Positions 1 to 26,807 of a stretch of DNA of 60,000 nt are shown here, in pieces. The stretch spans positions 77,378,001-77,438,000 of the forward strand of contig OZ076409.1 in NCBI GenBank assembly GCA_964187785.1, read 5' to 3'. Source of the stretch: Amphiscolops sp. MND2022 (taxonomy: Eukaryota). Both the position numbers and the translations under genes were made by a program. Under the pieces are notes generated by a model. The model made no database searches and had not been told where the DNA came from. It saw only the letters and a program-made list of their open reading frames with translations. The first letter of the stretch is position 1, and each line of letters opens with the position of its first letter.

Positions 1-2280
1 ATCTGTTTGCAGACAATAGACCTAACCACTATGAACAAAATTCTCAAGATTAACAAAATTTACATTTTAACACTAACAATTATACTGAAGATGATAACAC
101 CGATCAGGAAAATACAACCCAACAACAAAATCAACCTGAAAACTATAACGATAATGAGTTTACTACCCAAGAATCTACAATTTCAACACATAATCCATCA
201 CAAACAGGGACATCAACATCAGTACATACTCAATCTTTTAGAGTTCCCACTAGAGTTGTAAACCAAAGACAAACTACACATAGTCCTCAATCTCACTTAG
301 CTACATCTCCAAACCGTAATATAACTTTTAACCTTCCACATACAGATGACACACACGATGAAACCCATGATACATTACAGGATGATATTCTGACTACATC
401 TAGTGCTCAGAATACTTCTGTTAATGTTGCATCTCCAAAAAGAACTAATCCTGATTATACAAGATACATCACTCGACCTAGATATGATCCTCCATCAATT
501 CCCTCCGCCTTTCGCTCAAACAGATCGACCTCTTCCAACAACAATTTTAATGATAATCCCCAAACTTCCAATCGATATAACGATCCATTTAATTATAACT
601 TTATCCTCTATCAAATACAACTAACAATACAAATACCAACCAACATCACTCTCAAATTAATACAACTTCAACAACACAAAACCCCTTCATACAATTATCA
701 AATACCAATACTTCACAGAATATATATTCTCAAAATCAAGGAACCTCGTATACTTCCACTTCTTATTCTAATATCACACAGGATTCTCAAAGAAGACTTC
801 ATAATCCTCCACTTACACATATACCAACTGATCCTCTGTATCAAATGCATCCAAATCCAAATCCTAACCTTAATCCTAATCCATTACCACCAAATACAAT
901 CCAACATATACCTCCTCAACTCACACAACAATTAGCCCCTCCACCCCAATATTTACAAATGCCACAAGATACCTTTATACACATGTCCGCTTCAATACCA
1001 GAACCTATGAAACCTTTTGATGGTTTGGACCATTCTTATACCCCTGAAGAATATCTACAACAAGTCGAAGCAAGATTAACCTTCGCCATAGGTGAAGAAC
1101 CTCAAAATAATCCTATAAAAAACAAATCTAGGCATAACAGACGCATGGCTTACATACAATGTTCATTAACAGGAACAGCTCTCGATTGGTACACTAACCT
1201 CCATATATCATATAAACAACAATGGAATTCTTTTGTACAATTATTCAAAAAACAATTCTCATCTCAAACCACTGCTTACTACGCACAAGTAGAATCTATG
1301 TCACTCATGAAAAAGGATAATGAAACGGTTCGCCATTTCGCCTTTAGAGTACAACAATTAGTTAAAAAGGGATGGTGTTATGAAAATGCAGCTACCATAA
1401 ATCTCAAAATAATGAAATCTTTACAAAAGGGTTACCAAAAAAGTTAAAAGATTTTGCCCATAAACGACAAATTAAACATGTATCAACATTACTTGAACCT
1501 TCAATACCATTTCACACACTTGTTAGACATGTCGATTCTGAAGATATTGCTAATCAAAAAATTAGAACTAACGACTTAGCTCTAGAAATAAACAAAGTAT
1601 CGCTTGAAGATGATACTAACAAAAAAGAATTTGAACATGAAGATCAGATAATGGTTACTCAATCTGGAGACCCAAATAACAAAAGCAAACCAGCGTATAG
1701 AAAATATTGTTCCTATTGTCACAAAAATAATCATAGTATTTCAATTTGTTATCAAAAACAACGTGATGACGAATACCAGAAATACAATAACCAAAGATCA
1801 CGAACTCCTCAACAATCCTTTGTACAATATTTTCGCAGTAAACCTAATAATCCTCAAGAAAATCGAAATGACAATACAAATCCTTAATCCTCAGATAATG
1901 ATCGTAATAAATATAATCAAAATCACTATAATGATAGATACAGAAACAATGATAGATATCGTAGCAATAGTAGAGAATATTCGCAAAACAACTATAGATC
2001 AAACTCTCGACAAAGATATTATAATCGATCCCGAAGTCCGTATAGATCTCGATTTGATAATTATTATCAAAGAAGAACTCCATCTAGATCTCCATATAGA
2101 TCTCCATACAGAAATAACTCAAATTACAGATATAATTCTCGCTCAAGATACAGATCTCGTTCTCAATCACAAGGAAACTCCTTTAAACGATATAATTATC
2201 CATATAGATCTCCATCAAGACCTAGAGATTTTAGATCAAGATCTAGAACACCCTCAAGAAACAGACAACAAAACAGAATA
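1..2280 (+). pseudogene. gag: gag: long Q/N/T/P-rich N-terminus, capsid-like domain, CCHC zinc knuckle, RS/Y-rich basic tail
   Basis: MKPFDGLD...EEYLQQVE...SLTGTALDWY...WNSFVQLFKKQF (retrotransposon gag-like, ORF 845-1447). Frameshift ~1410 resumes as NEIFTKGLPKKLKDF. CSYCHKNNHSISIC (CX2CX4HX4C) at ~1708-1749. In-frame TAA 1885-1887, then RSRSPYRSR...RTPSRSPYRSPY in the same frame as pol. Confidence 0.88.
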
Positions 2281-5200
2281 AATCAAGTAGACGTTAAATC
2301 TGCAAAAGAAAATGATAGTACAAAATTTGAAATCCACACCTGTCAATTAACTGAAATAGCTAATACAATCACTACTTATAGTTGGTTTTATCCACTATAT
2401 ATTCACGCTTCTGAAACAAATGATAACATATTACCTTCAAAATTAGAAATCTTATTCCTCTTAGATACTGGAGCATCCATATCTGTTTTGAATTTACCAA
2501 CATTTCATGTAATTTCCAAACAATTAAACATCAATGTTCCAACTAACCTCCAAAACAAAAGAGCCAAAACTTTTACAGTTGCAAACCAAACTGAAGTACC
2601 AATAATACATTATATTTCGATGACCTGTTTCACTGTAGTAAATCACAAAACACGATCCTTCATTATCGATTTCGCCGTAGCAAATATCAAGTTCAACATT
2701 CTTGGAACACCCTTTTTCAAAAAACACATCCAAATTATTGATTTTCAACAAAATATTATGACGTACATAGAACAACATCCAAAGCTTCCAACAAAAACAA
2801 CATTTTCCACATTTACAGAAAAAGATTACCCATATATTTCTTACATTTATACTTATAAATGTAAGGAACCAAATCACTTTAAACCAAGGTCAGGAAAAAC
2901 CATACATTTCCCAATTAAAAACTATTCAAATCTACATTTTGAACTTGAAGATAATACAAAATTCGATCCAACCAACCCATATACATACTTCTTACAAAAA
3001 TTCAAAAATATCTTTCATTTCTTAGATATGATAGTCAATGAAAAAAGCAAAGACTCTTGTGCAACCATAATTCAAAACTTTACATCTTACCCAGCTACAT
3101 TACCACGAGGAATTATTGGATATATAGAAATACCTATTACTCAAACAACTCCTCCTCACTACAGAGTTAACGATGTAAATTCACTTATTCACTCTGTAAT
3201 ACATGCGTATCACCCTGATACCACAACTCCGATTAAACAAAATCCTTATGTAGATATGAACTTATGTACTAGGGTAACACCACAATCCCTATTAGAAATT
3301 AACAAGATAGAAATCAACGACAAAACACTTCAACTTCCTATACCTTCTGTTACTGGAAACCTTCGACCCTCAAATAAAATTCGAAAGGATTTCCCTCCAT
3401 TACCCTATTCTACAGAAAATCAACAATTCATAAAGAAGTTCAATTTTGAATACTCAGATTTAACCGATACAGAATATGTAAACCTCTGCAATATTCTGAT
3501 TGATAACCAAAATTGTTACGCCAAACATAAGAACGACGTAGGAAAGATTTCTACTCCCTTCCGAATTAGAATAAAAGATAATTGTAAACTTCACACACAA
3601 AGACCTTCTAAAGTACCTATTCACTATAGAGATAGACTAAATAAACTTTTATTAGAACTTGAAAAATACAACATCATAAAACAAATTGGTTCAACAACAG
3701 ATGAAAAACATACTATTGGAACAACATTTTTAAACCCTTTAATTATTATCCCAAAAGGAGACGCAATAAAAGTTGTCTTAGACGCAAGACATCTAAACTC
3801 AGACACTAACCAAGAACTTGAATCTTGGCCTATTGAACCTTTAGCTCCTCAATTAGCTAGAGCCAATAAAAAATACAAATCAACTATTGATCTAATGTAT
3901 GCATATGCTCATACACCATTAGACGAAGAAACAATTAAACTTACAGGATTTTCATCCGGTGACAAATTATACGCCTTTATCCGTGCATTTTATGGATTAA
4001 AGGAACTTCCAAACTTTTTTACAAAACAAATGTCAACTTTCTTTAGATCGCTTATAGACGAACGTTCTGCGTTAGTTTATATCGATGATATTTTATTACT
4101 CACAAACGAAAAACAAGAAATGTTTGAACTTATAAAAGAATTCCATACAATAGCATCTCGAGAAAATCTCAAACTTGCACCTGAAAAATCATTCTACATG
4201 TTACTCAAAGTAAAATTCCTTGGACATGAAATTGGTAACAACACAATTAAACCAATTCCATCCAAAATTGAAGCCATTAAAAGAATTCCATCACCAAAAG
4301 AAAAGAAAGATGTTATGCAATTTCTTGGCAGTGTTAACTATTATTCAAAATTCATTGAAAAACTTCATATAAACCTTAAACCATTGTATACATTACTACA
4401 TGATGATGTTAAATTTCAATGGACACCTGAATTAGAAAAAATATTTCAAAATGTTAAAAATACAATGACAGCAAACACTGAATTAACAATACCCAACACC
4501 ACGCATCCATTTTCATAACAGTAGATGCTTCGTTAGTAGGTTTAGGCGCAGTCTTGTTCCAAATGAACGAAGAAAATAAGATGAAAGTAATCTCCTATAA
4601 CTCCAGAATTCTTAACACACAAGAACAAAAACTTTCAACTTTAGATAGAGAACTTCTTGCAATAGTTTACGCATTGCAAATATATGAATTTTTGATCATT
4701 GGATCTCCTCATCCTATATACCTCTTCACAGATCACAAGCCTTTACTACATTGTTTCGCAAAGAAAGGAAATCTTAGTCCTAGATTCTATAGAGCACAAA
4801 TGCAACTAACCAAATTCTCCAAACTAAAAATCATTCATACCCTTGGAAAAAATTTAACTGTAGCAGATATGCTTTCACGAACCCTTACAAAAGAACAGCT
4901 ACAAGTACACCAATTACGACACCAACAATTACCACCTCAAATAGATTTCTCTATCATGAAAGATAATCAACTCAAACCAGTACATTATTTAGTAAAACAT
5001 GAAAAAATAAAATATAATCAAAAGAATGATTGTCATTCTATCCTTGCTGACTACGGAGACGACCAATTCTCTATCCGTATAAATAACAAAGGAGAAGAAA
5101 TACACATAAAGCCTTTAGATTCCTTCTCTTTTCAATCTATTGTTCCATTCGAATCAAAATATAAAAAGCCTACAAAAAACCAAGCAAAATCTCTTTTACA

Positions 5201-7223
5201 ACAATCGACAATTCTTAATGATACTGACATTCTTAGTGATGACGATGAAATAACTCAATCAAATAATATCCAACAACAAAACTCAGACATAGTAAAAGAA
5301 CACACCCTTGCTATACAATATCCTACCAAATCCGACTATTGTAAACAACAAGTTCCATTTTTTGATCCATCCTTTTTCAAATACAAACAATATTTTAATT
5401 ACTTCTTCCTACCAGGAGATACACAATTAACCATTGAAACAATAAAAGCTCAACCAAACCAAGATACTGTTTTACAAAAGGTTTACGAATGGATACTTAA
5501 TAATGAAAGACCCTTACAAATAGACCCAACAATTGCAGCTAATTCTTTCTTATTAGTATATTACAAAATCTTCAACCAATTATATATTAATCATGATACA
5601 AAAATTATCCACAAAGTTTATCCTAATCTTCACGATTCCAACCCGAATCAAAGAGACAAAATATGTCTACCATTTAAACTTTTCCACGCAGCTTTTAACA
5701 AACTTCATGCTCATGGACATTCAGGAATAAAATTATCCATCAAAGCTTTCAACCAATTTTACTTCATACCGTACTTGAATAAATGGATGTCAATATTCAT
5801 CCATGATTGCATTGAATGCCAACAAAATAAACATATTAACCAAAAATTACAAACTGCATCTATACAAACCTTCTCAGAAAATGCTTCATATTTTAATTAC
5901 CGAATATCAATGGATACAAAAGGACCTATAAACCCACCATCAAATCAAAATTCATACATTCATGTTATAGTAGACGCTTTTAGTCACTTTGTAGTAACAG
6001 TACCTATAAAACAAAATAATGCTCAAAACGCTGCTAACTCATTACTACATCATTGGATAACAAAACTTGGACCTCCTGTATATCTAGTTACCGACCGTGG
6101 AACAGAATACATTAATTCAGAATTTGCAAATCTTTGTACCACAATGGGAATTAGACATTCACCAAGAACTCCTTATGCACCATGGACAAATGGTTTAGTT
6201 GAAAATCAAAACAGAAATCTTGGAACTCATCTCAGACTTTTCTTACATAACACTCCAGAAAATTGGTCAACTCAAGTTCATATGTATGCTTATGCACATA
6301 ATTCACAACCACTTTCTGAATTAAACTTATCTCCATATGAAATAGTATTCCATACTATACCCAGAATTCCAATCAACTTTGAACTCAATCTCCAAAGAGA
6401 TACATATAGAAATTGTACTTCTCAATATTGTCAAGAATTACCACTTCATACACACTATGACAAATCAAATCTAAACCCTTTCTTTCATAAAGTTTTATCT
6501 AAACCAATTCCACAATGGATCTTAGCTACTGAAACTGCTATGATACAGATATACCATACAGTATATGAAAACACAAAAAGAAAGATTAATTCCTATGCTT
6601 ATTTTAACAAAACATATCACAATCCAAGACCCTTAGATATTGGTACATTTGTACTAAAAAGAAACTTTCTCCATGTTCATTTTTCCGATAAATTAAAACC
6701 TCTCAGAATTGGCCCATTCAAAGTTATTAACAAAATCTCCGACATAACATATGAAATTGTTAATCAAGATGGTTATACATCGCACATACATAGAAATCAT
6801 TTAATTCCTTATCATCCAAAAGAACCAGTTATTTTTCCTTTCCTACAACAATATAATCCTCATTTATTTAATGACTGTCATTCAAATATAAACGATTAAA
6901 TAATTAACTCTGATGAAGACAAATTTACTGACGAAGAACAAATTCCTTCCACAACATCTAATGAAGAAACGGATATACCATTCACGATTGACTTACAACC
7001 AGAATCATTTAGCCAATATTCTTCATTTCCATATAAACAAAAAGAACAAATTCCTCAAAATACCTACCTGGGTAACCAATCAGATATTCATGACTATTAT
7101 AATTTTAATAATCCACGAAGACACTCCTATAATAGATACAATTTCCGCCCACAACCAAGAAAAGACTACCGACTTTTCCTTGGTGAAAACGATATAATTT
7201 CACTTTCTCAAAAATCCTGCTGA
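2281..7223 (+). pseudogene. pol: pol: aspartic protease, reverse transcriptase, RNase H, integrase
   Basis: FLLDTGAS (DTG 2464-2472); RT YIDD 4078-4089 and KVKFLGH; frameshift ~4513, then TVDASLVGLGAVLFQ...RELLAIV...TDHKPL...ADMLSR (RH); HAHGH...CIEC, SMDTKGP, VDAFS, TDRGTEY, NGLVENQN, GPF (IN). After TAA 6897-6899 the same frame runs on to TGA 7221-7223. Confidence 0.95.
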
Positions 7224-7385
7224 AATACGGAATACAGAAAAAAGCACACCAAGAAAATTTGAAAGAAAAGCAAAAGTTTGAAGCTTACTGTGAAACTGAA
7301 TGAAAAATATTTCACAAGTGATAATAAACGAAAGAAATCGATATGAAACTATAACTATTTTATAAATTGAGACAAATAACCTTAA

Positions 7386-8855
7386 CACAAAGATTTCAAA
7401 ATTGATAGACATATTCACTCGCCATCATCAACCACAAATAACTCTTCTTCTAGTTCAACACATTCACTCCAAAGATTACCTGAATATACAGCATATTTAA
7501 ACTCAGATACAGACATACTGGATTCCTCATCCTCAAATCCCAGTCCATCCGCTCCATATACTCTTGATAGAGTACCAACAACACCCACCAATACACCTAT
7601 AACCCAAACTCAAACATTAATATTAACAACTCAATCACAACCTATTTCACGAAATCTAACATTTGTAAAAACAAATTCACCACTTTCTGACTCTAATGAT
7701 GAAACACCTACAATACCAAATACACAAGATACTTCAAATATTTTAAATAGACCTCCTCTTCCACCGATTACTACCACTCGTTCTATTCATATCCCTGATC
7801 CTAGCTCAGTCCTACAATACATAAATTCTTGTCCACATAAAGTACCAACCGCAACGAAAACAAAAAGAAAAACTCCTTTACCTACATTACCACAAAATCT
7901 TGATTTACCATCATCAAGTAATACTCCAATAACACTTTTACCAGAACCTTCATTGAAATCACCAACAAAGAAAACACAACAACACCCAACTCCTTCACCA
8001 TCTGAACTAAGTTCATTCATATTTTCTCAAATATATCCCAAGCTTGAATTAAAACGTGTACATTCAACCACCACCTCTTCTTTAACAGATTTATATCATA
8101 AAGATAAAGATTCTGACTCAACTGCTAGTACTAGAGTACCAAGACATAATTATAACCTTCGATCTCAACAACAAAGAAATTCTCAAGAATTACAATCTTT
8201 AACTAGTTCAAGTACAAACTCAAGACTACTTCGACAGCACGCCCAACCCAGATTGGAAACTTCTTCTCTTTCCTCATCTCAACCCACTATACCATCTTCT
8301 CTATCACTACCATTTCAAATCACATCAGGATTTGAAACAGCTTCTCTTCTTTCTGAAGAGCCAGTAACTATATCAGATAGCGCAGCCAATTTTTCACGAG
8401 TTTACTCACCTAGTTCAATAACATCAAACTCTTCCATACAATTACCTGAATATTTTTTAGAAGATTTCTCAATACCTCCATCACCAAATCCTCACGAATA
8501 TCCTATTCGTGTTAATTCAAAAATTGTTCGCACGCTTAACGAAGATCCTCGATACACGGTCTTACCTGCAAGATTTATAAACAACAGTTCACTCTCAACT
8601 CAAAGAAAACAAAGAGAACTACGAAGATTACAAGAACAACAACTCACATTAAAATTTGAAGTAGAAGTCACATTCAACTCGCTAGGACCTCATCCATTCT
8701 CTCTGTCAACAAGAGTAGCACACAAAACAACCCCATCACCATTCATAGTCACATCCATTTCTTACCTTTGTGACGCAGATTTACCTGAGATTAGAACAGG
8801 ACATATAAACTTTTTTAATCCCTACTCCGGACTCAATTATAGATCAATATTTTAA
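7386..8855 (+). CDS. ORF2 of the retroelement: Ser/Thr/Pro-rich protein of unknown function with a possibly globular C-terminal ~110 aa
   Basis: The frame of ORF 7953-8855 is open back to a TAA at 7383-7385 (~490 codons, start codon not evident). Contains PSAP (7545-7556), YPKL (8034-8045) and HNYNLRS. It stops 2 nt before the env ATG. Confidence 0.7.
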   Translation, partial: HKDFKIDRHIHSPSSTTNNSSSSSTHSLQRLPEYTAYLNSDTDILDSSSSNPSPSAPYTLDRVPTTPTNTPITQTQTLILTTQSQPISRNLTFVKTNSPLSDSNDETPTIPNTQDTSNILNRPPLPPITTTRSIHIPDPSSVLQYINSCPHKVPTATKTKRKTPLPTLPQNLDLPSSSNTPITLLPEPSLKSPTKKTQQHPTPSPSELSSFIFSQIYPKLELKRVHSTTTSSLTDLYHKDKDSDSTASTRVPRHNYNLRSQQQRNSQELQSLTSSSTNSRLLRQHAQPRLETSSLSSSQPTIPSSLSLPFQITSGFETASLLSEEPVTISDSAANFSRVYSPSSITSNSSIQLPEYFLEDFSIPPSPNPHEYPIRVNSKIVRTLNEDPRYTVLPARFINNSSLSTQRKQRELRRLQEQQLTLKFEVEVTFNSLGPHPFSLSTRVAHKTTPSPFIVTSISYLCDADLPEIRTGHINFFNPYSGLNYRSIF

Positions 8856-8857
8856 CC

Positions 8858-11429
8858 ATGAACCAAACCACCTTTACCCTATATTTAATATACACAATAC
8901 AAGTTGTTAAATACACATATATAATACACATAGTCCACTCTTTAGTTCACCCTTCAACTGTTCCTAAAGTTGACACCACCAATTCTGAAAATCATATTTC
9001 AAACCAAGATCCTAACATTTTAAACTTGATGGTATCTCATTATGATTGTGCAAAACAAAACAACTTAAGACAATTCAGTTTATTAAATGTAGAACCATGT
9101 AAACAAGCACCCTCAGATATACAACACACAAACACCCAAGCAACAGTTTATGTTAGAGCAAAAGCTAAAAGAATATAAGCCTTTAAATGCGAAGCATATA
9201 TAAAGACTGAGAAAGTCTGGTGTTCACAAACATTCACATCTAGTAGACGATATGATCGTTCACAATGGGGACAAAACACATTAGAACTTCCAAAATTATT
9301 GGACCCTATTGAATGCAAAAAATATGATCAGATATTTAAACGCGACTGATAGCGAAGAACTAAACAACTACAATATACAAAGCTCTTTCTCATTGTTCGA
9401 CGATAGTAATTATCAAAACACAATTGAACGAATTCAGACACCATTTAGAGTAAAAAAATTGAATACATGGCATATTGGAACCTTCGTATTTGATGAAAAT
9501 TATCCTGACTGGATAGTTAATGTTACACAAAATACATACTCCAGATGTCGATCAGACCGAGAACATTTAATTACCCGACAAAGTCGGAAACTTAGAATTG
9601 TTAACACCGCAATAGTATATGACGACAAAAACAATCAATTAATACATGACGGACACATATTACCATGTTATCATTCAGACGGATTTTGTAAACCAACGAC
9701 CAAAACTCCATATACATTAACATGGTTTGATGAAAAATTTTGCCTCATATTTCAACTTCAAGAATTCCTTGGTAGAATGACACGAATCAAAGATAGATAC
9801 TGGATAGAAACCGATACCTTCATTGAAACTTCAAACATCACACAAAAACTTAAACCGAAGGAATACAAGGAACAAGATATCCTAATGTAAAAACACAACA
9901 ATCAAAAGTAGGCAATCCAAGCCTTTCTCGATTTGAAATATACCCAATTGCACAAACCTTCTGTGGAAAACCTGAACCATTATTTTCAACACAATATGAT
10001 GACATCTTTGTTACATATTTAGATGGTTTTGATATGAACACAGGATTACCAAAACCACACTCAATAATTGACCAAACAATTAGTGGAAATATAAAATATG
10101 ATGATTCAAACAAAAGGTATATATTCCCTGCATTAAATATATCAATCAATTTCGCCACTTTAGATTATGATGCCCACATTAATACAAAATTTGATTTCAC
10201 AATAAATCATGTATTTAAATCCATGACAGTACAAGAACTAAACACTCTTCATACAATATGTGAACTGGAAAGAACTCAACTATAAACGATCTTACCTGTC
10301 AGTTAAAAATCCTCAATTAGCCGGTTTTCTTTTAATTGGAAATCGTAGTAACTTTCTCTACGTTGAAGGATCTACAGCATGGCTGTATGATTGCCCTCAT
10401 TTTATATCACCACTATACAAGGCAGACAAATGCTTTGATAGAATTCCTATACACTACAGAGAAACGATAATGTATGTTGACCCAATAACAAGACAAACTT
10501 TTAACTATGCAACACCAATTGAATGGGGAAATAACCCACAAAATATAATAGAATTAGATCCAGATTCTAACGGAGATTTTTATGTGTTAACACCAGAACC
10601 ACTTAAACGAGAAGCACCACAAATGTTTAAACCTACCCAAATTAAAACAACAATCACTCCTAATACATTTACCGCCCAAGATGCCGGTATATACTCAAAT
10701 GCAGAATTAGATCATTTCTGGAATAGAGTACTATTTGCTAAACATTCTGACACAACTCTCCTATTACTTGGAAAATCATTAAGCTATGATTTCATCTCAA
10801 TGCATAATGATAAACACTCATACTCAGGACATAATCCCTATAATCATTTAAGGATTGGAGTACATGACCACTTGTTAAACCTTTTACCACTTTTTAACCC
10901 TGACTGGTTCAGTCAATCATTCATTAATTTCTTTGGATATCCATGTTTTGTTTTAACTCAATGTGGAATTTATTTTTCAACATTTCTTTTCATTAGAGAA
11001 GTTTTAACATTTTTACTCAAATTCTACAGAACAATTAGCATAAAATATAATCTCCAAAGCAACATTTCCATTTTGAGTTCAATAGCCCATGGATTTTTAA
11101 ATATAGTTACATCGGAAATGGTAACCGATTTAAACAATACAGGAAAACGAAAACGGATATATACTAAACACAAAATTACAACAAGTGAAAATGATACTAT
11201 CCTATTGCCGGAAAAAGAACTAAACAATAAACGAAGACACTCTGATACTGACTTCCCTTATTTACCTCCTAAATATTCCAGTAAGAATTCAACATTTCAA
11301 TCACCGCAAAAGACACACCCAACTAATGTAAACGATATTAATTCTCAGGACTATGACCCAATAATGTCAAATGTAATAGCTGTACCGGAAAGTCCTGCTA
11401 AAGTCTTTACAAAATTCAATCCCTCCTAG
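8858..11429 (+). pseudogene. env: env: viral fusion glycoprotein resembling chuvirus G / herpesvirus gB-type (class III) proteins
   Basis: Hydrophobic N-terminus; HYDC...FSLLNVEPC; LHTICELERTQLLTILA...NPQLAGFLL; WLYDCP; CFDRIPIHY...YVDPITR...PIECG; AGIYSNAELD; C-terminal hydrophobic TM and basic tail. These motifs match my recollection of chuvirus-like glycoproteins. Disrupted by TAA 9176 and frameshifts ~9320, ~9850, ~10297. Confidence 0.8.
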
Positions 11430-11585
11430 CTGAAAAACAATAACTTAAAATACAAATTAACCTCAGAAAAAGTTCAAAAAATTATCAACTAAATTCTTCT
11501 CGGTATTAACTTTCATTCAAACCCAAATTCTCACTCGGACCGGTCTCTCCTTTTCAACTCAACAACAAATTCACTTGCCCACCAC

Positions 11586-13466
11586 CGCAATAGATTATGA
11601 CGACAAAAACAATCAATTAATACATGACGGACACATATTACCATGTTATCATTCAGACGGATTTTGTACCAACGACCAAAACTCCATATACATTAACATG
11701 GTTTGATGAAAAATTTTGCATTTTGTAACCAACGACCAAAACTCCATATACATTAACATGGTTTGATGAAAAATTTTGCCTCATATTTCAACTTCAAGAA
11801 TTCCTTGGTAGAATGACACGAATCAAAGATAGATACTGGATAGAAACCGATACCTTCATTGAAACTTCAAACATCACACAAAAACTTCAAACCGAAGGAA
11901 TACAAGGAACAAGATATCCTAATGTAAAAACACCACAATCAAAAGTAGGCAATCCAAGCCTTTCTCGATTTGAAATATACCCAATTGCACAAACCTTCTG
12001 TGGAAAACCTGAACCATTATTTTCAACACAATATGATGACATCTTTGTTACATATTTAGATGGTTTTGATATGAACACAGGATTACCAAAACCACACTCA
12101 ATAATTGACCAAACAATTAGTGGAAATATAAAATATGATGATTCAAACAAAAGGTATATATTCCCTGCATTAAATATATCAATCAATTTCGCCACTTTAG
12201 ATTATGATGCCCACATTAATACAAAATTTGATTTCACAATAAATCATGTATTTAAATCCATGACAGTACAAGAACTAAACACTCTTCATACAATATGTGA
12301 ACTGGAAAGAACTCAACTATTAACGATCTTAGCTGTCAGTTAAAAATCCTCAATTAGCCGGTTTTCTTTTAATTGGAAATCGTAGTAACTTTCTCTACGT
12401 TGAAGGATCTACAGCATGGCTGTATGATTGCCCTCATTTTATATCACCACTATACAAGGCAGACAAATGCTTTGATAGAATTCCTATACACTACAGAGAA
12501 ACGATAATGTATGTTGACCCAATAACAAGACAAACTTTTAACTATGCAACACCAATTGAATGGGGAAATAACCCACAAAATATAATAGAATTAGATCCAG
12601 ATTCTAACGGAGATTTTTATGTGTTAACACCAGAACCACTTAAACGAGAAGCACCACAAATGTTTAAACCTACCCAAATTAAAACAACAATCACTCCTAA
12701 TACATTCACCGCCCAAGATGCCGGTATATACTCAAATGCAGAATTAGATCATTTCTGGAATAGAGTACTATTTGCTAAACATTCTGACACAACTCTCCTA
12801 TTACTTGGAAAATCATTAAGCTATGATTTCATCTCAATGCATAATGATAAACACTCATACTCAGGACATAATCCCTATAATCATTTAAGGATTGGAGTAC
12901 ATGACCACTTGTTAAACCTTTTACCACTTTTTAACCCTGACTGGTTCAGTCAAGCATTCATTAATTTCTTTGGATATCCATGTTTTGTTTTAACTCAATG
13001 TGGAATTTATTTTTCAACATTTCTTTTCATTAGAGAAGTTTTAACATTTTTACTCAAATTCTACAGAACAATTAGCATAAAATATAATCTCCAAAGCAAC
13101 ATTTCCATTTTGAGTTCAATAGCCCATGGATTTTTAAATATAGTTACATCGGAAATGGTAACCGATTTAAACAATACAGGAAAACGAAAACGGATATATA
13201 CTAAACACAAAATTACAACAAGTGAAAACGATACTATCCTATTGCCGGAAAAAGAACTAAACAATAAACGAAGACACTCTGATACTGACTTCCCTTATTT
13301 ACCTCCTAAATATTCCAGTAAGAATTCAACATTTCAATCACCGCAAAAGACACACCCAACTAATGTAAACGATATTAATTCTCAGGACTATGACCCAATA
13401 ATGTCAAATGTAATAGCTGTACCGGAAAGTCCTGCTAAAGTCTTTACAAAATTCAATCCCTCCTAG
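11586..13466 (+). pseudogene. env: 5'-truncated env copy 2
   Basis: ORFs 11813-12343 and 12507-13466 repeat env copy 1; internal ~59-bp duplication at 11661-11779. Confidence 0.9.
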
Positions 13467-13622
13467 CTGAAAAACAATAACTTAAAATACAAATTAACCT
13501 CAGAAAAAGTTCAAAAAATTATCAACTAAATTCTTCTCGGTATTAACTTTCATTCAAACCCAAATTCTCACTCGGACCGGTCTCTCCTTTTCAACTCAAC
13601 AACAAATTCACTTGCCCACCAC

Positions 13623-15445
13623 CGCAATAGATTATGACGACAAAAACAATCAATTAATACATGACGGACACATATTACCATGTTATCATTCAGACGGATT
13701 TTGTAAACCAACGACCAAAACTCCATATACATTAACATGGTTTGATGAAAAATTTTGCCTCATATTTCAACTTCAAGAATTCATTGGTAGAATGACACGA
13801 ATCAAAGATAGATACTGGATAGAAACCGATACCTTCATTGAAACTTCAAACATCACACAAAAACTTCAAACCGAAGGAATACAAGGAACAAGATATCCTA
13901 ATGTAAAAACACCACAATCAAAAGTAGGCAATCCAAGCCTTTCTCGATTTGAAATATACCCAATTGCACAAACCTTCTGTGGAAAACCTGAACCATTATT
14001 TTCAACACAATATGATGACATCTTTGTTACATATTTAGATGGTTTTGATATGAACACAGGATTACCAAAACCACACTCAATAATTGACCAAACAATTAGT
14101 GGAAATATAAAATATGATGATTCAAACAAAAGGTATATATTCCCTGCATTGAATATATCAATCAATTTCGCCACTTTAGATTATGATGCCCACATTAATA
14201 CAAAATTTGATTTCACAATAAATCATGTATTTAAATCCATGACAGTACAAGAACTAAACACTCTTCATACAATATGTGAACTGGAAAGAACTCAACTATT
14301 AACGATCTTAGCTGTCAGTTAAAAATCCTCAATTAGCCGGTTTTCTTTTAATTGGAAATCGTAGTAACTTTCTCTACGTTGAAGGATCTACAGCATGGCT
14401 GTATGATTGCCCTCATTTTATATCACCACTATACAAGGCAGACAAATGCTTTGATAGAATTCCTATACACTACAGAGAAACGATAATGTATGTTGACCCA
14501 ATAACAAGACAAACTTTTAACTATGCAACACCAATTGAATGTGGAAATAACCCACAAAATATAATAGAATTAGATCCAGATTCTAACGGAGATTTTTATG
14601 TGTTAACACCAGAACCACTTAAACGAGAAGCACCACAAATGTTTAAACCTACCCAAATTAAAACAACAATCACTCCTAATACATTTACCGCCCAAGATGC
14701 CGGTTTTTACTCAAATGCAGAATTAGATCAATTCTGGAATAGAGTACTATTTGCTAAACATTCTGACACAACTCTCCTATTACTTGGAAAATCATTAAGC
14801 TATGATTTCATCTCAATGCATAATGATAAACACTCATACTCAGGACATAATCCCTATAATCATTTAAGGATTGGAGTACATGACCACTTGTTAAACCTTT
14901 TACCACTTTTTAACCCTGACTGGTTCAGTCAAGCATTCATTAATTTCTTTGGATATCCATGTTATGTTTTAACTCAATGTGGAATTTATTTTTCAACATT
15001 TCTTTTCATTAGAGAAGTTTTAACATTTTTACTCAAATTCTACAGAACAATTAGCATAAAATATAATCTCCAAAGCAACATTTCCATTTTGAGTTCAATA
15101 GCCCATGGATTTTTAAATATAGTTACATCGGAAATGGTAACCGATTTAAACAATACAGGAAAACGAAAACGGATATATACTAAACACAAAATTACAACAA
15201 GTGAAAATGATAATATCCTATTGCCGGAAAAAGAACTAAACAATAAACGAAGACACTCTGATACTGACTTCCCTTATTTACCTCCTAAATATTCCAGTAA
15301 GAATTCAACATTTCAATCACCGCAAAAGACACACCCAACTAATGTAAACGATATTAATTCTCAGGACTATGACCCAATAATGTCAAATGTAATAGCTGTA
15401 CCGGAAAGTCCTGCTAAAGTCTTTACAAAATTCAATCCCTCCTAG
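13623..15445 (+). pseudogene. env: 5'-truncated env copy 3
   Basis: ORFs 13612-14322 and 14486-15445 repeat env copy 1; retains PIECG cysteine. Confidence 0.9.
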
Positions 15446-15790: not shown

Positions 15791-15886
15791 AAAAGATATA
15801 ACGAAATTTTTCCTTATTATTAGAAATAATATAATCAAACGTTATAATCATTATTTTAGCTCTACAAAAACACGCAAGTTTAAATA

Positions 15887-17178
15887 ATGGAATCCTTGCC
15901 CGAAATTGATGTAGTTAACTCTAATCCCTCTGAATTGCTTGCATCCCCTTTGAATATAACTATTCAACAAAATGTTAACGAAGATAATAACTCTTCCTCC
16001 AACTCTCAAGACCCCATAGAAACTATTCCTATTGAACAAGTAGATCATGTTAACGCAAGATCTCAAAAAAGAAAGTACCCAGATATAACTGCAGACAAAC
16101 CTTTTATGGAATCTGGCGCTTGCCCTCCTTTCATAAAACCAATTAAACAAGATGAAGATAGAGATTGTGAATTAGTTCCTATTCTCTCGTCAAAACACTT
16201 CACCTTTCAATCTCAGTTAACTTCGTTATACATGATTCCAACAAAATACAAATTCATCATCAGAGAATTTAAAAATGATTATCATACATCAATTGCATCA
16301 AAATTGATTTCCCCATATGATTGGTGGTTAAACAATAAAGTGAAAATTTTCTCACTCCAATAAAACTTCCTCAGACCATCTCCATATGATCTTCGAACCG
16401 AAGAAAATGATGCAATTTTTTTGCCATACCAAATCAAAAAGGCTCACCACATGACTTATCAAAAGTTTCTTCAAAATAAAGAGCCCGATAATTATATATT
16501 CTTCAACTCCAAATATACATCGTCATTTACTTTCAACTCAGAATATTTAATAGATCATACCAAAACAAAAGGAAAAATTAGAAATTATGACCCGCTGAAA
16601 CAAAGTTTTCTCTTCCTTCCAAATGATAACCCAAAAAGACCAATCATTGTACCACAAGAATACCTCTTTCTGAACGACGATTCGTTACTACAAGAAGATA
16701 TACCTCAACATATATCTGATCCTCTTCCTCCACTTCAACATATAGCCTCTCAACCTTTGAGACTGTGAAAAATCTTATTTTCACGCAATGACCAAAAAGG
16801 GATATTCGAATAAGGAATTAATTTTCATTATTTCGCATCTGCTTTCACTTCTTACAAATGGAAATCACAAAGAATATAAAAAAGGCAAAACAAGAATCGC
16901 CTAAGAAAACCAAAAATGATATCCCCAACCACAAAGTTTTCGCCCAACAGACGAATTACAGAAATATACAGAAATTCTGAATATCATAAAACCGTATCAT
17001 TATCCGAACCGAGATATTCTTATAACAATCGCTGAAATCGTAAATACCCTTGAACAAGCTCGAAGCATAATACAAAATATCGTATTTGATACGACAAGAA
17101 TTAGCCAATCAGATTTGTGCATTCGCACATCTTTAGACGAATTCAACTACACTATTGAAAAAATGCATCGATCTTAAC
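15887..17178 (+). pseudogene. Accessory ORF B of the retroelement, unknown function
   Basis: ORFs 15887-16363 and 16421-16768 are in the same frame, separated by one TAA. Coding-like sequence continues with lesions to roughly 17180; 3' end approximate. Confidence 0.6.
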
Positions 17179-17509
17179 TGGTAATTATGGGATAATCACT
17201 CTAAAATTGTTAACACTTACCACTTAATCTCTTAACAACCTGTCAAAATTGATTGAGTCTACACGTATATGCCTGGTATGAACAATTATAATACATGCTT
17301 GATGTTAAAATACTCTTTTAAAATAAAATAACAACAAATTTCAATCGCGACATAAAAATTTTCAACAAAATTGCTCCTCCTTTTAATGGACCGATTTCAA
17401 CAAATAAGTACTTATATGAAAGATATTTAAATACCCTTCAAGCTTCCAAAATACAACAACTTAATACTTAAAATTAAAAAGTTATAACATCACAAAATTC
17501 AATAAAAAA

Positions 17510-18163
17510 ATGTCAACTACGAAATTCTATTTTCAAAGGAACTTTATTGTAAACAAACTAATCTATTGTAGGTGAATATCGTCACAACTGCTTCTTCAGC
17601 ATTCCTTCCTTCTCTCAGGTCACCCATTCAAGAAGAATTCCGAAGTATCCTCTACAGCTTTCAACGAAATTTTCTCATTCTTCAATATGACAACTATCCA
17701 CTCTGGCGACATTGACTGCCCGATAGCTCCTTTCCTTTCAATCTCTTCAGCTCGATTGCGATCCTTGATCCTGAAAAAGCATTTAACGACATTAAATGCG
17801 CAGCTTCGAACAGAAAAAAAGGCTGACCCACATCTTACAAGGATGATATTGCTTAATATGTTCCAATTATTCCAAATAACAAGAATAAATTTCGACCAAT
17901 ATCTCCATATTCATAAACATCCTGACACTTATTCAACTCAAAAGGATGCCACTACCCAAACGGAACATACTACAATCAAACCCAAACGTTTACTACGAAC
18001 CCTATCCAATAGAATGCGTTCCGAAATGGAAAAACTACGTCTAAATTCATATTGGCCCTCAGATGACAATGATGACACTGACGAAGACCTTCAAAAAGAT
18101 CCCCCAGAAGCACTTTTAGACGATAACTACCCACACAAAACATATACTTACGTTTCCTTCTAA
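17510..18163 (+). pseudogene. Accessory ORF C of the retroelement, unknown function, acidic C-terminus
   Basis: ORF 17687-18163 extends in frame to ATG 17510 across one TGA; ends SDDNDDTDEDL...YVSF. Confidence 0.6.
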
Positions 18164-19223: not shown

Positions 19224-19492
19224 TGTACTGACCTACATTAATAACCAATAGTATTTAGATGTTTATAGAATGTTCTAGAATGTACATTTATTTGTTATTG
19301 AATGATTGTAAATCTCTACTCCCTCAGAGAGAGAAAACTAACAATCAGTATTCAGTTGACTTCCTTTTTGTTCTGCTTCTAACACCTCGAACTAGTTGTA
19401 ATAAAGTAAGCTAGCTAGCCTGTCTCTCCGCCGCTTTTAGTAGTTGTGAATAAGACCATCCAAAGAAGTAACCAACCATTAAAAGCAGCACA
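19224..19492 (+). repeat. 3' LTR of the giant element (~269 bp)
   Basis: Starts TGTACTG and ends CAGCACA (6/7 inverted match); AATAAA at 19400-19405; base composition changes here. The 5' LTR is not available for confirmation. Confidence 0.75.
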
Positions 19493-20198: not shown

Positions 20199-20773
20199 TT
20201 AATCGTTCAACTTCTTGTATCTTCCTAGAATGCTCTTTCTAACTTGATGACAGCCAAGAGTGTACTGCTTCGGTCCGAGAAAATGGCTACATGACTTTTT
20301 CTCCCCATTCATTGAGCATTTCTTCTTGGATTTATTAGGGAAGAATACCTGCACGTCTTCCACTGGTTTTTTGGCTCTACAGGTGGTTCCAAAGCACTTG
20401 CAAAAGCAGCAGCAAAAATTTTGTTTCATCTTTCTTCGAAACATGCGTTTTAGTTCAATTTGGATAATCATGCAGTCTGCGTTTTCTTCAATCGATCGAA
20501 CATCGCCGATGGCCAAACCAACAAGCAGGTTCATTAGAATGAGAGTGGTTAATGTACTTGTGATAAACCATTGAAAAACATAGCCAAAAAGTACTTCTGA
20601 GTCCTCAGTTAGTGGTTTTCCATCTGCAGTCAAGCGGGATGTGTCGATGTATCCATACATTGCACTTAGGACATAGAAAACGCTCGTGAAGAAACGATTC
20701 ATCTGCTCCCATCCAATGTTTCCTCGAAGCGGAGACCAAGTCAAACACTTTTCTTTCAATTCAGAAGAGTCAT
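20199..20773 (-). CDS. TRPA-like cation channel, last coding exon (pore loop, S6, C-terminus)
   Basis: ILMNLLVGLAIGDVRSIEENA is the TRPA-type S6/TRP-like helix. Acceptor TTTTTAG|AT at 20773 is phase-compatible with the upstream donor; stop at 20199. Confidence 0.85.
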
Positions 20774-22228
20774 CTAAAAACATTTTTTAACGTAATTACG
20801 AAATTTTTCTACATCTTATTGAAAACTGCCGAATTTAGATTTTTTCGACCATTTAGGTGTAATTTTGAGGCTCTTTTCTAACGTGAAACTGCAATTGACC
20901 TTCAAAAAAAGCCTGCTGCATACCGCTTTTGTTTGCTGTTGAAAGTGTTCATACGTCTAACTAGGGAAGCATTTCAAAAAAGTGCATCAAAACGTGAAAA
21001 TGGGATTTTTTTCAATTCCGATTCATCAGGGTCATTTTGAAGTATCTTGAAGCGAAACACCGCCACTCTCTCACAAGAAACGCATACTGCATAAATAATT
21101 TGTTCGTTTTTGAAAGTTTTAAACTTTCTTATCCATTAAATCTACACAAATTGCATGAAAAATGAAAAACGACATGAATTGAAAAGTTTTGAGATTTCGA
21201 GTGAAATTGAAGCATATTTCTAATAGAAAACTAGCATTTTTTTTCCTACATTTTCATCAAAAAGTTCCTTTTATCTCTTCAAAAGCTAACTGGACATCAA
21301 ATTCGAAAGTTGATGAGAAGGTGTGAAGTCTCGATTCATGAAAACGTTCCACATTTTACAAAATTTTAGCTACAAAAATCAGAAATTGTAAAATTATTTG
21401 TTTTTTTCACTACTTTGGGATGATTTTGAGACTTGTTTTGCAAAATGAAACAGCATTTGACTTTCAAAAGGGCTACTCTATCACGCGTTCGTTTGATGTT
21501 GAGTTTTTTCAATCTTCTAACGAACGAATTTTTCTGAAACTTGCAAAAATCATTTTTCGGAAAAGTTTTGGATTTTGACACTTTTGAGACTTTCTGAGAT
21601 TTAATTCTGCCTACAAAGCTACAAAGTTGTCCTTTAGAAAACGTACTCGGCTTTTTCCGGGGCAACTTGAAATTTTTCTTGAAAACGCTTCAAAAATCTC
21701 ACAATTTGCACAAAAACGTTTAAACAGTTAAATTTTTCTATTTTCCGACTCATTTGGGTCATTTTGTTTTGTTGATGCAAAACACTATACTGTCCTTTCC
21801 AAAGAGTATACTACATTGCTACTTTGTTCATCTTTCAACGTTTTAAAATTCGATGCCCACCAAATATTTTCGGTGTTAAGTTGGGACATAACTCTGTCAA
21901 AAGTAACTTTTATCTTCTCAATAAGCCTTCAGGACAAAAGTTCATTTGTTCTTGAAAGGTGTCAAAGTTGAAATCCACGAAAACGTTAGAAGTTTTTCGT
22001 ATATTGCTTTGAAGAATTAAGTTCAAAGAACTTTTGTCTTTTTAGTCAGCGCCTTTTTCCTCAAGGAAAAAAGCCCGACTATTACAGTGGGTAATTTTTG
22101 TTCAGCTGACAATCTCACTTTGAACGGTCCAATTTTCTTACAATTCTTTCAATATTACAATTTCTTACAATTCTTACTTAGCTTACGAAGTAGAATTTTT
22201 ACATCATAGAATTACATAAGAAACTGAA

Positions 22229-22520
22229 CCGGGGCGAAGGGTACCCCCTTTGAATGTTTGCGGCTCTGTGAGAATTTTTTTCCGAAAAATAGGTTTTCAC
22301 AGAAGGGTCCCCTTCAATTTTTTAAATTTTCCGACAGAATGGTTGTTGAAAAAGCCCAAAAGTGTCCCCCTTTCAGTTTTTTTCCGGCCTTATGAGACTT
22401 TGTTTTCAGTTTTTTTTTCATAAAAGGATCCCCAATTCACAAATACTTTCACATTTTGAAGTCTTTATGAGATTTTTGAGCCTCAGATTTGGCGCCTACT
22501 TGGGCCCTTCCCGGCTTGTT
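22229..22520 (+). repeat. Short interspersed non-autonomous repeat in TRP intron (possibly Helitron/Helentron-derived)
   Basis: Four ~60-bp-spaced AGGGT(A)CCCC...TTT motifs and a GC-rich 3' end GGCGCC...GGGCCCTTCCCGGCTTGTT. Confidence 0.35.
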
Positions 22521-25034
22521 GATTGTTTTGGTGTCATTGTGTTCAACCGTTTATAACAAAACTGTCTCCTCGAAATTTGTCTCCCCGAAAAACCCTGTTG
22601 CACAAGGAACTTTTTCGTTATTGAACGTGTTTAAATGTCTAATCCAAATGCGTTCGGGAAATGTTCGAAGCATTTTTCTATGGAAAAACTGCCTTCATCT
22701 CTTCCCAAAAACCTACTGCATAACTATTATCTTCCTTGTCGAGCGTTTTAAGCATTGTAAGTCACGAAATCTATCCATTCTTTGACGCAAAGTGGAAAAC
22801 AACTTTTAGAAATGTACTTTCGGAGTTTCAAGTTGTTGTTTTGGGAGCATTTTGGGCCTTTTTGGGGTCTAAGGGTCAAACTGAAAATTCCCTGAAATCT
22901 CTACAAAGTCATGTCGCTCGGAAGTAAAGTTGCGTTGTTGAACTTTTTGCGTGAAACTGTTTTATTCAGTTATAAATATGGAACATGGCAAAGTTAGGAA
23001 AACAACGCAGCTGATTCAAAGATTTTTCGTTTCCATAAGGAAAATGGGCGGAGGATAACAAACTTGACAGCAGAAATCCATTCAACTACAGTTCGATATC
23101 CAAAACAAAAGTTGCTATTCAGTAGTATATATATACCCTAGTTGACACTGCTGGAACATTTTTACATGCTGCAGGCCTGCATGCAGGGTAATTTTTTTAA
23201 TAAAACCTAGAATATTCAGTAAGGATCCAGTGGTAAATCTTGTAGAATTACACAGCAGTTTCCACTACTGCAATTAAATTTGAAAATGTTTCCTACTTCT
23301 TTTACGGACCCGATCACGTTGTATTCACACATTGATTTCTCAAATACTCATCTGATTTAATCACCGCTTCTCAAATAGGACGCTGAAGATGACGCTAGTT
23401 TGCTGTTTACATTGTGAATGAAGTTAATTTGTATTAAAATGGCGGCAAAAATGTTGACGTCTCAGCTGCATTCAAAATTAGAAGTGATGCATATTGAAAC
23501 TTGCAGAACTTCGCGGCTTGAAATTGCCGCCAAAACTTTGACGACTCTTTAAAGCAGCTTGATAAAAGTTGGCGACAACAGGGAAATATTTACGCATTAG
23601 AGTATCCGTAAGATATTTAGAAAAGCATAATAAAGTTGCTGGCAACATTAAAGTACATGTAAAAAATTCGAGCATGTTCAACAAGGGTTTATATTACTGA
23701 AGTATGTAAGTTATGTATATTACTGCATATTACTGTAAGTTTGTAAGTTACCCTCCCGAAAATTATCCAATAGAACAAGTATGCTCTTATTACAGCGGCT
23801 GCTAAAATGAAAGATTCCCACCTAATATAAATAAAACCCAATTGAATACCTTCGTCTATTTCAAAAGTGTAGAAGCAACTACCTATTCAGATCTTATGTG
23901 CATCTGTCGAAATCTTTGTTTTTGTTTTTCTCCCGGAATAAATTTGCTTGGAATCTTAGATACTTTGTTTTTGAGGCTCCGAGGTTATCAAGAAGTTTCA
24001 ATAGTTCACTTCTACTACCATTTGGGTTTTTGTTTTTGTTTTCACGTGACATAACTTCTGCATTTGTGAAGTTTAGACCTTTTTTTTCTAGAAATCTTTT
24101 CTTCCGAGACCATTCAAATTTCTGCAAGTTCTGCAATTGAACGCTCTTTTGCAGTAAATCAAACTTTTTGCACGACTTTTTGCCTGTGCGGTTTTTTAGC
24201 TTCGGAAATATTTAGTGTTTTCGGCAACTTTCCTTATTTTCTCTACCAACAAAAATTGAAACTAGCCCAAAAGAGATACAAAGCGACGCGTGGTATTGCG
24301 TACATTTATGAGAATTTCGTTAAAATACAAAGTTTGCAATAGGAGATTGCAATAGGCGTACTTAATTTTCAAACTTGTCAGGCAATTTTCTCGAAACCGA
24401 GAATAGTTATGATACAATGTTTTCGTTAAAAGTTGCGCAAGATCGATCTCATATTTCTCAGAACTTAGACCATATACGGAGTCCCTCGTTTCCTAACTTG
24501 AACAATAGTTTCGTAGGCTACATTTTAGTCTAACTCTGCCGTCAAAAATGTTTCTAATTCTGTTTTTTTTTGGGCAAAAAAGTATGGAAAATTTGTCTGA
24601 TTTTTTTTCAATTTGTAGCTCACTAATTCTCAGAACTGAAATAAGATGCGGAGACCATTCTCTCTTAGAACGTACGGTAGGCATGTACGCTATTCGTTTG
24701 AGAATCGAAGTTCCTGATATGACGCTTTGGTTTTTGCCAGAAATAATTGAAAAAGTTTTTGTCTCTCAAAAATGTTCGATATGAGCCAGAAACATTCCTA
24801 TTGGTTCCAGGCCAGTATCTGCAACGTTTTCTAGCATGTTCTGTGCCCTTTTCCTTTTTAAAACGTTTCTACTCGAAGCCAAGCGTGACATTTTGTTGCG
24901 CCTTTGTTTTTTCCAGTTGCCCTTTTTCATTCAATGTGAACTTTTAAGAATTATGATACAATGTTTTTTTGGTTCACGTAGCAAAAGTTTCTCAGTCCCG
25001 TTCTCTGGCATCACAATCAAGCTTGATAACTAAC

Positions 25035-25573
25035 CAGCAAGGATTTCAACGTTTGAAGATGTAATCTCTTTCTGTCTCAGAGCCAAACCATTTGCCGCTA
25101 GGGCGAGAATCAGCAGTACCACTGGAAGTGTAGTCTTCATCAAAGTTTTGAGGACTGCTGTTGCAAGGAGAATGTATTTTCCACAGTACATATTACTGGA
25201 CAACGATTCAAGTAAATTTAAAAGAAGAGCTAGCATCAAATTGGACATGGCGACCCCTTCTTCATCAAAGAATGATCCAGTGATCCAGTGAAAGACAAAA
25301 CTTCCGACAACAAATAATTGCAGCCAAAACTCTTTGACATGATTTTTGTACAGACAAAGCATCTTCGGCAACTCCAGAACCGAATGAATCAAAAAGAGTA
25401 GAAGAAAATAGAATAATGCGATTCCGAAATCCTGCTGCCAAGGTGCGTCGGCTTCGATAAAAGTAACTACGCCGTTACACATCACTGTAACTTCTCCGTT
25501 GAATACTCCTGATATTTGAAGCACTAGACTGGCAATCATCAGAAGAAGTTTCAACAAAGCCATTTTCCAATTT
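25035..25573 (-). CDS. TRPA-like channel exon (transmembrane segments S1-S5)
   Basis: Five hydrophobic stretches including GKYILLATAVLKTLMK...LLILALA. Acceptor TTTTTTAG|A at 25573 and donor G|GTTAGT at 25035; phases fit both neighbours. Confidence 0.85.
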
Positions 25574-26050
25574 CTAAAAAAGATATTTCACAAGCAGCAT
25601 TGGGGCAATTGCTGAGTCTAAACTGCCTAAAGTGCCACCGTATTCCCTTACAAGATTTTCATACTTGGGCTCCGACTAGTAACTTTTATTGTCTCTCGAA
25701 ACTGTGATGGATCCCAAATTAACAACAACATAGATGCAGTTTTTGTGACTCTGCAAGATGGTTAACAATGTTCATGTAATCATTGCGCAAGCTCTCTGAA
25801 AGTACCGTGATGCTTTGAGACCCTTTTTTTGGTTGGGAATTTTCACGCATGAATTATATTTTTGCCTCATTTTTTGTTAAATTGACGTCAAATTGACGAT
25901 GCTGTCTTTGGAGTATCACATTAATATTGGAGGAAGCTAACAAAACACCCTCTGAGAGACAAAAAACTATTTTGAACTAAGATACGGGGTCGGTGCACCG
26001 TTTTAATCGAATATACTATCAAAAAATGGTATGAAGTTTGAACAACTTAC

Positions 26051-26252
26051 GACTGTGAGTATATATGTAGGTATGATAGCAGAAGTGGATGTAATAAAAT
26101 TTGCTTCGATTTTGGCTCTGTGACATCAAGCTCAGATAAGTCAATGAACAACTCGGGTTTCAGTAAAGTGCAGCGTTCACCATCATTCATCCCATTTTCA
26201 AATAGTGTAAAATCCATTCTTGCTTGAAGGTTGGGGTCTTCTTCCGAGAATC
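26051..26252 (-). CDS. TRPA-like channel exon (pre-S1 linker)
   Basis: MDFTLF...ILLHPLLLSYL (TRPA LLxHPL motif); acceptor TCACAG|GA at 26252; donor TC|GTAAGT at 26051. Confidence 0.85.
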
Positions 26253-26807
26253 CTGTGACACAAACCATTCAGTGAAAACTGGGGGGGTTCAAAAAAGAGA
26301 CGCAGTGGCACGGTTTTTCGTTTTTCATATGTTCATAAAATAACACATAAGTCCATATATGCCTTTAGTGAGAATGACCCCCAGCCTTGATAAAGTAGTT
26401 ATGTAAGTTAAACGTTTCTACAGAAATATGGTTCCAAGGGGCAATTTTTTTCAAAAAGTGCAACTTTAGTCCGTTTTTGCAAAGAGCTCAGACTTGTTGC
26501 TGTGGAAACAGCAAATAACGTTTTGAAATCTCAGTTTCAAATATAAATGTGTGAAAACCGGAAAAAAAGTACAAACTTTTGTTTCTCAATAACTTCAACT
26601 CGAACTGAAATGCAATGTGTTGCTTTTTATATAATTAATTCAAGATTCATTTCTTGCCTCTAACTTTTCATGATTTTCATGAGCATAATAATTTTACGGT
26701 GAGTGTAATGTGTCTGTCAACTTTGGTCAAATATTATCAACTAGCTTTTATGAAGATTTTTGAAGCTACTTATTTGAGTAATTTGTTTGATCGTGTACGA
26801 AACTTAC

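Follow-up and report, generated by a model that had tools for sequence, protein, structure and literature searches.

In negative-strand RNA viruses, the M gene is placed directly before the glycoprotein gene, and the M protein of rhabdoviruses combines a disordered arm bearing late motifs with an alpha/beta core. Sendai C-ALIX offers a precedent for a viral protein that engages ALIX, and EIAV Tat for a start at CUG. A GAU codon following a non-AUG start codon benefits initiation.

Late motifs are defined as P(S/T)AP and YPxL (PMC8402826). ORF3 of hepatitis E virus is an AUG-started protein of 114 aa with hydrophobic domains, in which PSAP serves the contact with TSG101 (PMC3630916). In rice tungro bacilliform virus, an AUU start is followed by an AUG-free stretch of ~895 nt that is scanned, with entry by shunting, and the combination of non-AUG initiation with AUG depletion up to the downstream gene is a recognised signature of leaky scanning (PMC3542737). 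Env-carrying Ty3/gypsy elements (errantiviruses sensu lato) were surveyed by Chary and Hayashi (PMC13524379) within a region of 10 kb and with a pol-env gap of up to 1,000 bases; the main text of that survey mentions no accessory, matrix, late-domain or leaky-scanning feature. The element described here shares with the class III/gB-type env group of that survey the LTRs, gag, a PR-RT-RH-IN pol followed by a fusion glycoprotein, and the presence of many near-identical young copies. It also carries an additional gene between pol and env, here called ORF2, which is the subject of this work.

The Host Element of ORF2

The window analyzed is a stretch of 60,000 nucleotides from Amphiscolops sp. MND2022 (assembly GCA_964187785.1, contig OZ076409.1, positions 77,378,001 to 77,438,000 of the forward strand). 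ORF2 lies in an LTR element of ~18.5 kb with the order gag-pol, ORF2, env and two further ORFs, all on the plus strand. The gag-pol gene (54-7223) begins upstream of the window and is broken in this copy; its Pfam matches follow the order capsid, protease, RT, RNase H and integrase, the protease match being weak (E 0.18) with the D-T-G motif present. The env gene (8858-15445), also broken here, encodes a class III fusion glycoprotein that matches PF24664 with 48-96 bits against a cut-off of 27. Two accessory frames, ORF4 and ORF5, come after env (15884-18163; ORF4 is broken), and the 3′ LTR is found at 19224-19492. The 5′ LTR is located ~2.6-2.9 kb upstream of the window. The two LTRs of 269 bp are 98.9% alike, with TG...CA ends, a PBS starting with TGG and a target duplication of 4 bp. 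The element is thus assigned by its structure to the env-carrying Ty3/gypsy LTR retrotransposons. A Troyka element, defined by CG...CG termini and a 3-bp target duplication (PMC12440569), was considered and rejected on account of the TG...CA ends and the 4 bp found here.

A first look at the genome (1.07 Gb) gave 5,177 candidates for the ORF2 domain, and the 150 that were scored are 98-100% identical.

Several further traits of the element and of the window were recorded. The 3′ two-thirds of env are present three times in tandem (9605-15445), in units of ~2 kb that are 98-99% alike. ORF4 (15884-17100 in the window; 430-500 aa) is conserved across families and has no Pfam match, and ORF5 varies by lineage. 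The Gag protein begins with ~270 conserved and apparently folded residues that match nothing in Pfam, followed by a disordered linker and the capsid; it also includes a long RS-rich tract. Between the 5′ LTR and gag, the leader of families B-E (see below) contains two to three small ATG-started hydrophobic ORFs of 37-79 aa, and one such ORF was also seen in a further copy; judged by eye, they are predicted to encode membrane peptides. Outside the element, exon-like frames on the minus strand (20199-27231) resemble a membrane ion-channel gene, near-identical frames at 38981-39451 and 44783-45250 (minus) resemble a zinc-finger protein of DNA transposons, and frames at 49891-50436 (minus) and 54532-55032 (plus) resemble the starts of other retroelements, all by eye.

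The ORF2 Frame and Its Conservation

The stop-to-stop frame of ORF2 spans 7386-8855 on the plus strand and comprises 489 codons, close to the ~490 open codons of the preliminary description. Position 7386 is the first codon past a stop and not a start codon. The other features read earlier from the window were also recovered: PSAP at 7545-7556, YPKL at 8034-8045, richness in S, T and P (194 of the 489 residues), and an end 2 nt before the ATG of env at 8858. The complete absence of ATG from the frame had been overlooked. The same 489-codon frame was found in 17 of 30 fetched copies, 16 of which have no Met.

Relatives of env at 53-63% identity led to five sister families in the same genome, B-F, each of which was sampled by two natural copies. 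Together with the family of the window copy (A), they form three deep lineages, that is, A, B/C and D/E/F. Between lineages the RT is 77-81% alike and ORF2 35-45%. In all 10 copies of B-F, ORF2 is located between pol and env, with 418-478 codons and no Met.

Synonymous sites are near saturation between lineages and dN/dS was taken within them. The values for ORF2 are 0.10 (D/E), 0.16 (B/C) and 0.17 (E/F), and those for its C-terminal domain 0.05-0.09. This purifying selection excludes a neutrally evolving frame. ORF2 is neither a tail of pol nor a fused leader of env in any of the six families, because env starts at an ATG of its own and the stop of pol, whose phase relative to ORF2 varies, lies 60-350 bases upstream of the frame. 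It is near certain that ORF2 is a real gene. A search for fused forms of ORF2 of 602-2000 aa gave none, which is weak evidence, and scanning viral and metagenome contigs gave no match. With the queries used, some at very strict thresholds, the distant domain relatives P0185, P0306, P0299, P0252 and P0222 were not detected in this genome.

A Candidate CUG Start

One candidate start is common to the six families. In the window it is a CTG at 7518 that is preceded by A at −3 and followed by GAT (7515-7523, plus strand), and it would give a product of 445 residues. The arrangement A-x-x-CTG-GAT is in frame near the 5′ end of ORF2 in all families. The site is covered in 119 of the 120 copies that were examined; CTG is found in 118 of these and A at −3 in all 119. 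Among the Leu codons of gag-pol in these families, 0-2.2% are CTG. Family C has no other near-cognate codon from the upstream stop to PSAP. The conserved near-cognate codon is flanked by a purine at −3 and by G at +4, as expected for non-AUG initiation. A hairpin ~14 nt after the CTG, which is an enhancer and not obligatory, was sought over 80 nt; no shared structure was found (best −0.4 to −5.7 kcal/mol).

Family A has a second candidate start, an ATT at 7401 in the same A-x-x/GAT context (7398-7406, plus strand), which would add 39 residues. It is present in 29/29 young and 26/29 older copies. The third-position bias of 7401-7460 shows a coding-like pattern, and the 44 codons upstream of the CTG look coding. 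Since the ATT-GAT is conserved and followed by such a pattern, family A may also make a longer form of ORF2.

A TATA-like ATAAAA, a possible internal promoter, precedes the candidate start by 40-60 bases in copies of A-C; it is farther away or missing in D-F, and altered in the window copy (7340-7360).

The lack of ATG would also be expected if ORF2 were not independently initiated, but joined to a message as its 3′ exon by splicing, or appended to Pol by read-through or frameshift. In family A, such an origin has in its favor the AG dinucleotides located behind pyrimidine runs within 130 bases of the beginning of the frame, as well as the 44 coding-like codons before the CTG; that extension, however, has a start context of its own in the ATT-GAT. 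In families B and C, the stretch from the upstream stop to PSAP is free of AG; in D-F, conserved sequence comes first and an AG appears only 50-100 bases past the CTG. Between pol and ORF2 there are several stops, and the frame of one relative to the other varies. In addition, the codons of PSAP have changed synonymously in two of the three lineages while the motif persisted; it is therefore likely translated, which argues against splicing. The avoidance of out-of-frame ATGs described below is likewise unexplained by splicing. A spliced or fused ORF2 is very improbable.

Depletion of ATG up to env

From the CTG to the stop, 0-4 ATGs are present in all frames together, versus 6.8-12.5 in dinucleotide shuffles (P ≤ 0.01 in 8/8 copies; the counts for B and C include env's own ATG). 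Similarly, 74 copies that are open from the CTG to the end contain 0-4 ATGs, whereas a 1,200-base stretch of env has median counts of 23-32. The choice between T and C at silent sites, where T would create an out-of-frame ATG, is a measure independent of composition. The ATG-creating T is used at 9/29 sites in ORF2 versus 284/387 in gag-pol (p 6e-6), 139/166 in env and 23/29 in Gag, which is equally S/T/P-rich (p 5e-4 versus ORF2); both pooled p-values are optimistic, because B and C are related and share sites, and only three deep lineages exist.

The depletion is total in E and F and partial in A-C. Between the CTG and env, the window copy has just two ATGs, which are adjacent and out of frame and open a frame of 16 codons (7696-7746, plus strand). 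The two to three out-of-frame ATGs retained in families A-C, some with a purine at −3, count against leaky scanning. On the whole, the conserved start context and the depletion make a CUG start with leaky scanning to env quite probable.

Under this arrangement, a minority of the scanning ribosomes would start at the CUG of ORF2, and the remaining ones would scan 1.2-1.4 kb further to the AUG of env. Leaky scanning would fix a low ORF2:Env ratio and couple both products in time. The ORF2-env message itself may be made by an internal promoter or by splicing of a non-coding exon.

Late Motifs

The TSG101-type motif PSAP (7545-7556, plus strand) occupies codons 10-13 after the CTG, and the ALIX-type motif (I/L)YPxL is found at 8031-8045 (plus strand). 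In 20,000 composition shuffles of ORF2, P(S/T)AP appeared in 3.8%, YPxL in 14.5% and both in 0.5%; the pair in one sequence is only suggestive, because shuffling yields both at that rate. The Y, P and L of YPxL are invariant across the six families, x is K, P or R, and the preceding residue is L or I (IYPKL in the window copy, LYPPL in B/C, LYPRL in D/E/F). A hydrophobic residue followed by YPxL arises in 1-4% of shuffles per family. The motif is present in 67 of the 76 database proteins that span the site, which mostly belong to family A and its older subfamily; the other nine are about one residue off. LYPRL is also carried by the diverged relative P0198. In the more distant relatives P0252 and P0296, the 140-170 residues before the domain contain no YPxL, PSAP or YNLR, and these sequences are possibly incomplete.

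PSAP is found 9-10 codons after the CTG in 27/29 copies of A, 20/20 of B and 20/20 of C, written with different codons, and PSAP or PTAP in 26/30 older copies of A. It is absent from families D, E and F. Therefore, of the two motifs pointed out in the preliminary description, YPxL is conserved in all three lineages, and PSAP in A and B/C only.

Neither P(S/T)AP nor YPxL was found in the Gag of the five families searched. Late motifs other than those of ORF2 do exist in these elements, since PPxY is present in the Gag of B and C and in every env tail. In detail, the cytoplasmic tails of env (window 15323-15442, and families B-F) have PPxY and, at their end, a common [ST]P-x-[KR]-[VI]-[YF] motif, and represent a candidate docking site for ORF2. 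The host genome encodes genes of the ALIX V-domain family.

The segment with YPxL is disordered, as judged from composition alone. In the proposed mechanism, this disordered arm of ORF2 would present the late motifs, and the C-terminal domain would dock, putatively, on Gag or on the Env tail. The proposal that ORF2 is a dedicated budding factor is partly supported, by a separate gene under selection with an invariant YPxL, and weakened by the absence of PSAP from one lineage.

The C-Terminal Domain

The conserved domain at the C-terminus of ORF2 (8460-8852, plus strand; 131 aa) is predicted to consist of a helix followed by five long strands. The more hydrophobic, beta-like end of ~110 aa pointed out in the preliminary description is modeled as an alpha/beta domain made by the last 131 residues. 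The alignment-based model reached a pLDDT of 81; a fold from the single sequence was poor (pLDDT 50) and was set aside. There are 130 relatives of the domain at 28-94% identity. The tree, calculated from the 61 of 97 aligned rows with at least 105 of the 131 columns, includes clades beyond the six families.

Nothing meaningful was obtained with Pfam for ORF2 and 97 domain sequences, and a sequence search of the PDB gave no match for the domain profile and likewise none for env. The confident model found no counterpart at E ≤ 0.001 among viral models or the PDB. The best fold-comparison score was Z 3.1 among 48,161 chains, with no M protein among the matches listed. The ESM Atlas returned different, low-recognition matches for two family members and was dropped. 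As no family, structure or viral model was matched, these searches speak neither for nor against a kinship of the domain with viral M proteins, and they do not establish a new fold.

The suggestions that ORF2 is matrix-like and that it was captured together with the glycoprotein thus gained no support, given that no viral protein matched in sequence or fold. They can be put as a single alternative, in which ORF2 is a true matrix protein derived from the M gene of a negative-strand RNA virus, captured as an M-G block and forming a lattice under the envelope. This would be in line with the position of ORF2 immediately upstream of a PF24664 glycoprotein gene in each of the six families, with a disordered late-motif arm joined to an alpha/beta core, as in rhabdovirus M, and with several database relatives that continue from the domain into env sequence. 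On the other hand, the ORF2 product (410-446 aa) is much longer than a typical M, the N-terminal domain of ~270 residues in Gag could itself serve as a matrix, and the searches gave no positive link of sequence or fold. A captured matrix protein is considered quite unlikely.

Other Conserved Motifs and the Role of ORF2

YPxL is only one among several short motifs that are invariant in ORF2. YNLR (8151-8162, plus strand), which is invariant in the six families, matches the Y-x-L-R core of the chromatin-binding site of foamy-virus Gag, and LxRxHAQ and TSG are found at 8223-8330 (plus strand). These motifs could indicate a different main role for ORF2; their conservation, as read from the alignments, is a sign of function and does not say which function. 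The search for a hydrophobic segment in ORF2 was negative (best mean over 19 residues ≤1.02), and the start codon is followed by Asp instead of Gly, which counts against membrane anchoring.

A CUG-started ORF2 could be mainly nuclear, acting through YNLR as a nucleosome tether or transcription regulator, with the late motifs being secondary or used otherwise. The agreement of the invariant YNLR with Y537-x-L539-R540 of foamy Gag (PMC9040877) speaks for such a role, as do the basic clusters of ORF2, the lack of a membrane anchor, and the example of MLV p12, where a late motif is combined with chromatin binding (PMC8402826, PMC9040877). Nevertheless, the Pol tail already has a motif of the Y-x-L-R type in most families, coupling to env would suit egress better than an early nuclear function, and the conservation of LYPxL and PSAP would be left unexplained. 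A mainly nuclear ORF2 is, in our view, fairly unlikely. The Pol motif is a terminal Y-x-(L/F)-R, similar to that of ORF2, and is located at the C-terminus of Pol (window ~7137-7170; also B, C, E and F).

Alternatively, ORF2 may be an accessory protein with some other job, for example in countering host silencing or in RNA export, and its late-like motifs may not be used in budding. Several invariant motifs with no assigned role, a PSAP that was lost or never present in one lineage, and a domain with no known fold match would all fit. Yet invariance falls precisely on the three positions that define an ALIX motif, and these are preceded by L or I, in a combination that is rare in the shuffled sequences. 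Such a different job is considered distinctly improbable.

The explanation preferred here is that ORF2 is a conserved ATG-less accessory gene, likely started at CUG on an inferred ORF2-env message, and likely a stand-alone adaptor for ALIX, and in three families for TSG101 as well. This reading as a whole is judged slightly more probable than not, and an ESCRT adaptor as the main role of ORF2 is an evenly balanced proposition.

In evolutionary terms, a lineage of env-carrying LTR retrotransposons may have transferred its budding signals from Gag to a separate CUG-initiated gene that has a new fold and is translated along with env through leaky scanning over a long distance, a scenario advanced tentatively and at somewhat less than an even chance. 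If true, particle release would be turned on only when the fusogen is made as well, and ORF2 would represent the first gene of a Ty3/gypsy element that is dedicated to acting as an ESCRT adaptor or matrix analogue. In the openly available literature searched, no description of such an ATG-less budding gene of a retrotransposon was found. The placement of late motifs in a gene tied to env offers a testable answer on how the particles of env-carrying invertebrate retrotransposons are wrapped and released. Furthermore, annotation based on ATG and filters on the pol-env gap can conceal a whole accessory gene as well as a class of complex elements of ~18 kb, for which a single genome yields candidate copies in the thousands.

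Comparison with Known Systems

Compared with the env-carrying Ty3/gypsy elements of the survey (PMC13524379), the present ones differ in the extra gene between pol and env, in the two genes after env, in the small hydrophobic ORFs of the leader and in their size of ~18.5 kb. Their pol-env gap is 1.27-1.74 kb, beyond the limits of that survey.

The translational arrangement is similar to that of vpu and env in HIV-1, where a weakly initiated accessory gene likewise precedes env, which is reached by leaky scanning (PMC2657110). There is no homology, and vpu is short with a weak AUG, whereas ORF2 has a CUG and 1.2-1.4 kb to be scanned. ORFs I-III of rice tungro bacilliform virus also belong to a reverse-transcribing genome, with a non-AUG first ORF and an AUG-free stretch; this is a plant pararetrovirus with no envelope, and it shows no homology to ORF2 (PMC3542737).

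In HIV p6, EIAV p9, MLV MA/p12 and foamy Gag, a disordered segment combines P(S/T)AP and YPxL motifs, as in ORF2, and p12 and foamy Gag add a chromatin-binding motif, comparable to YNLR (PMC8402826, PMC9040877). The retroviral motifs are located inside Gag, whereas here they are found in a separate gene and neither P(S/T)AP nor YPxL is present in the Gag of the families searched.

The M gene of negative-strand RNA viruses resembles ORF2 in its place directly before the glycoprotein and in the late motifs of its disordered arm. ORF2 is about twice the size of M, and the searches gave no link in sequence or fold.

ORF3 of hepatitis E virus is also a dedicated late-domain protein outside the capsid, and the bicistronic message for it carries a structural gene as well (PMC3630916). 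ORF2 differs in its length of 410-446 aa, in having LYPxL as the constant motif and in its folded domain, and the two are not homologous. By analogy, ORF2 would work like ORF3 of hepatitis E virus or like a late-domain segment freed from Gag, while being a member of neither group.
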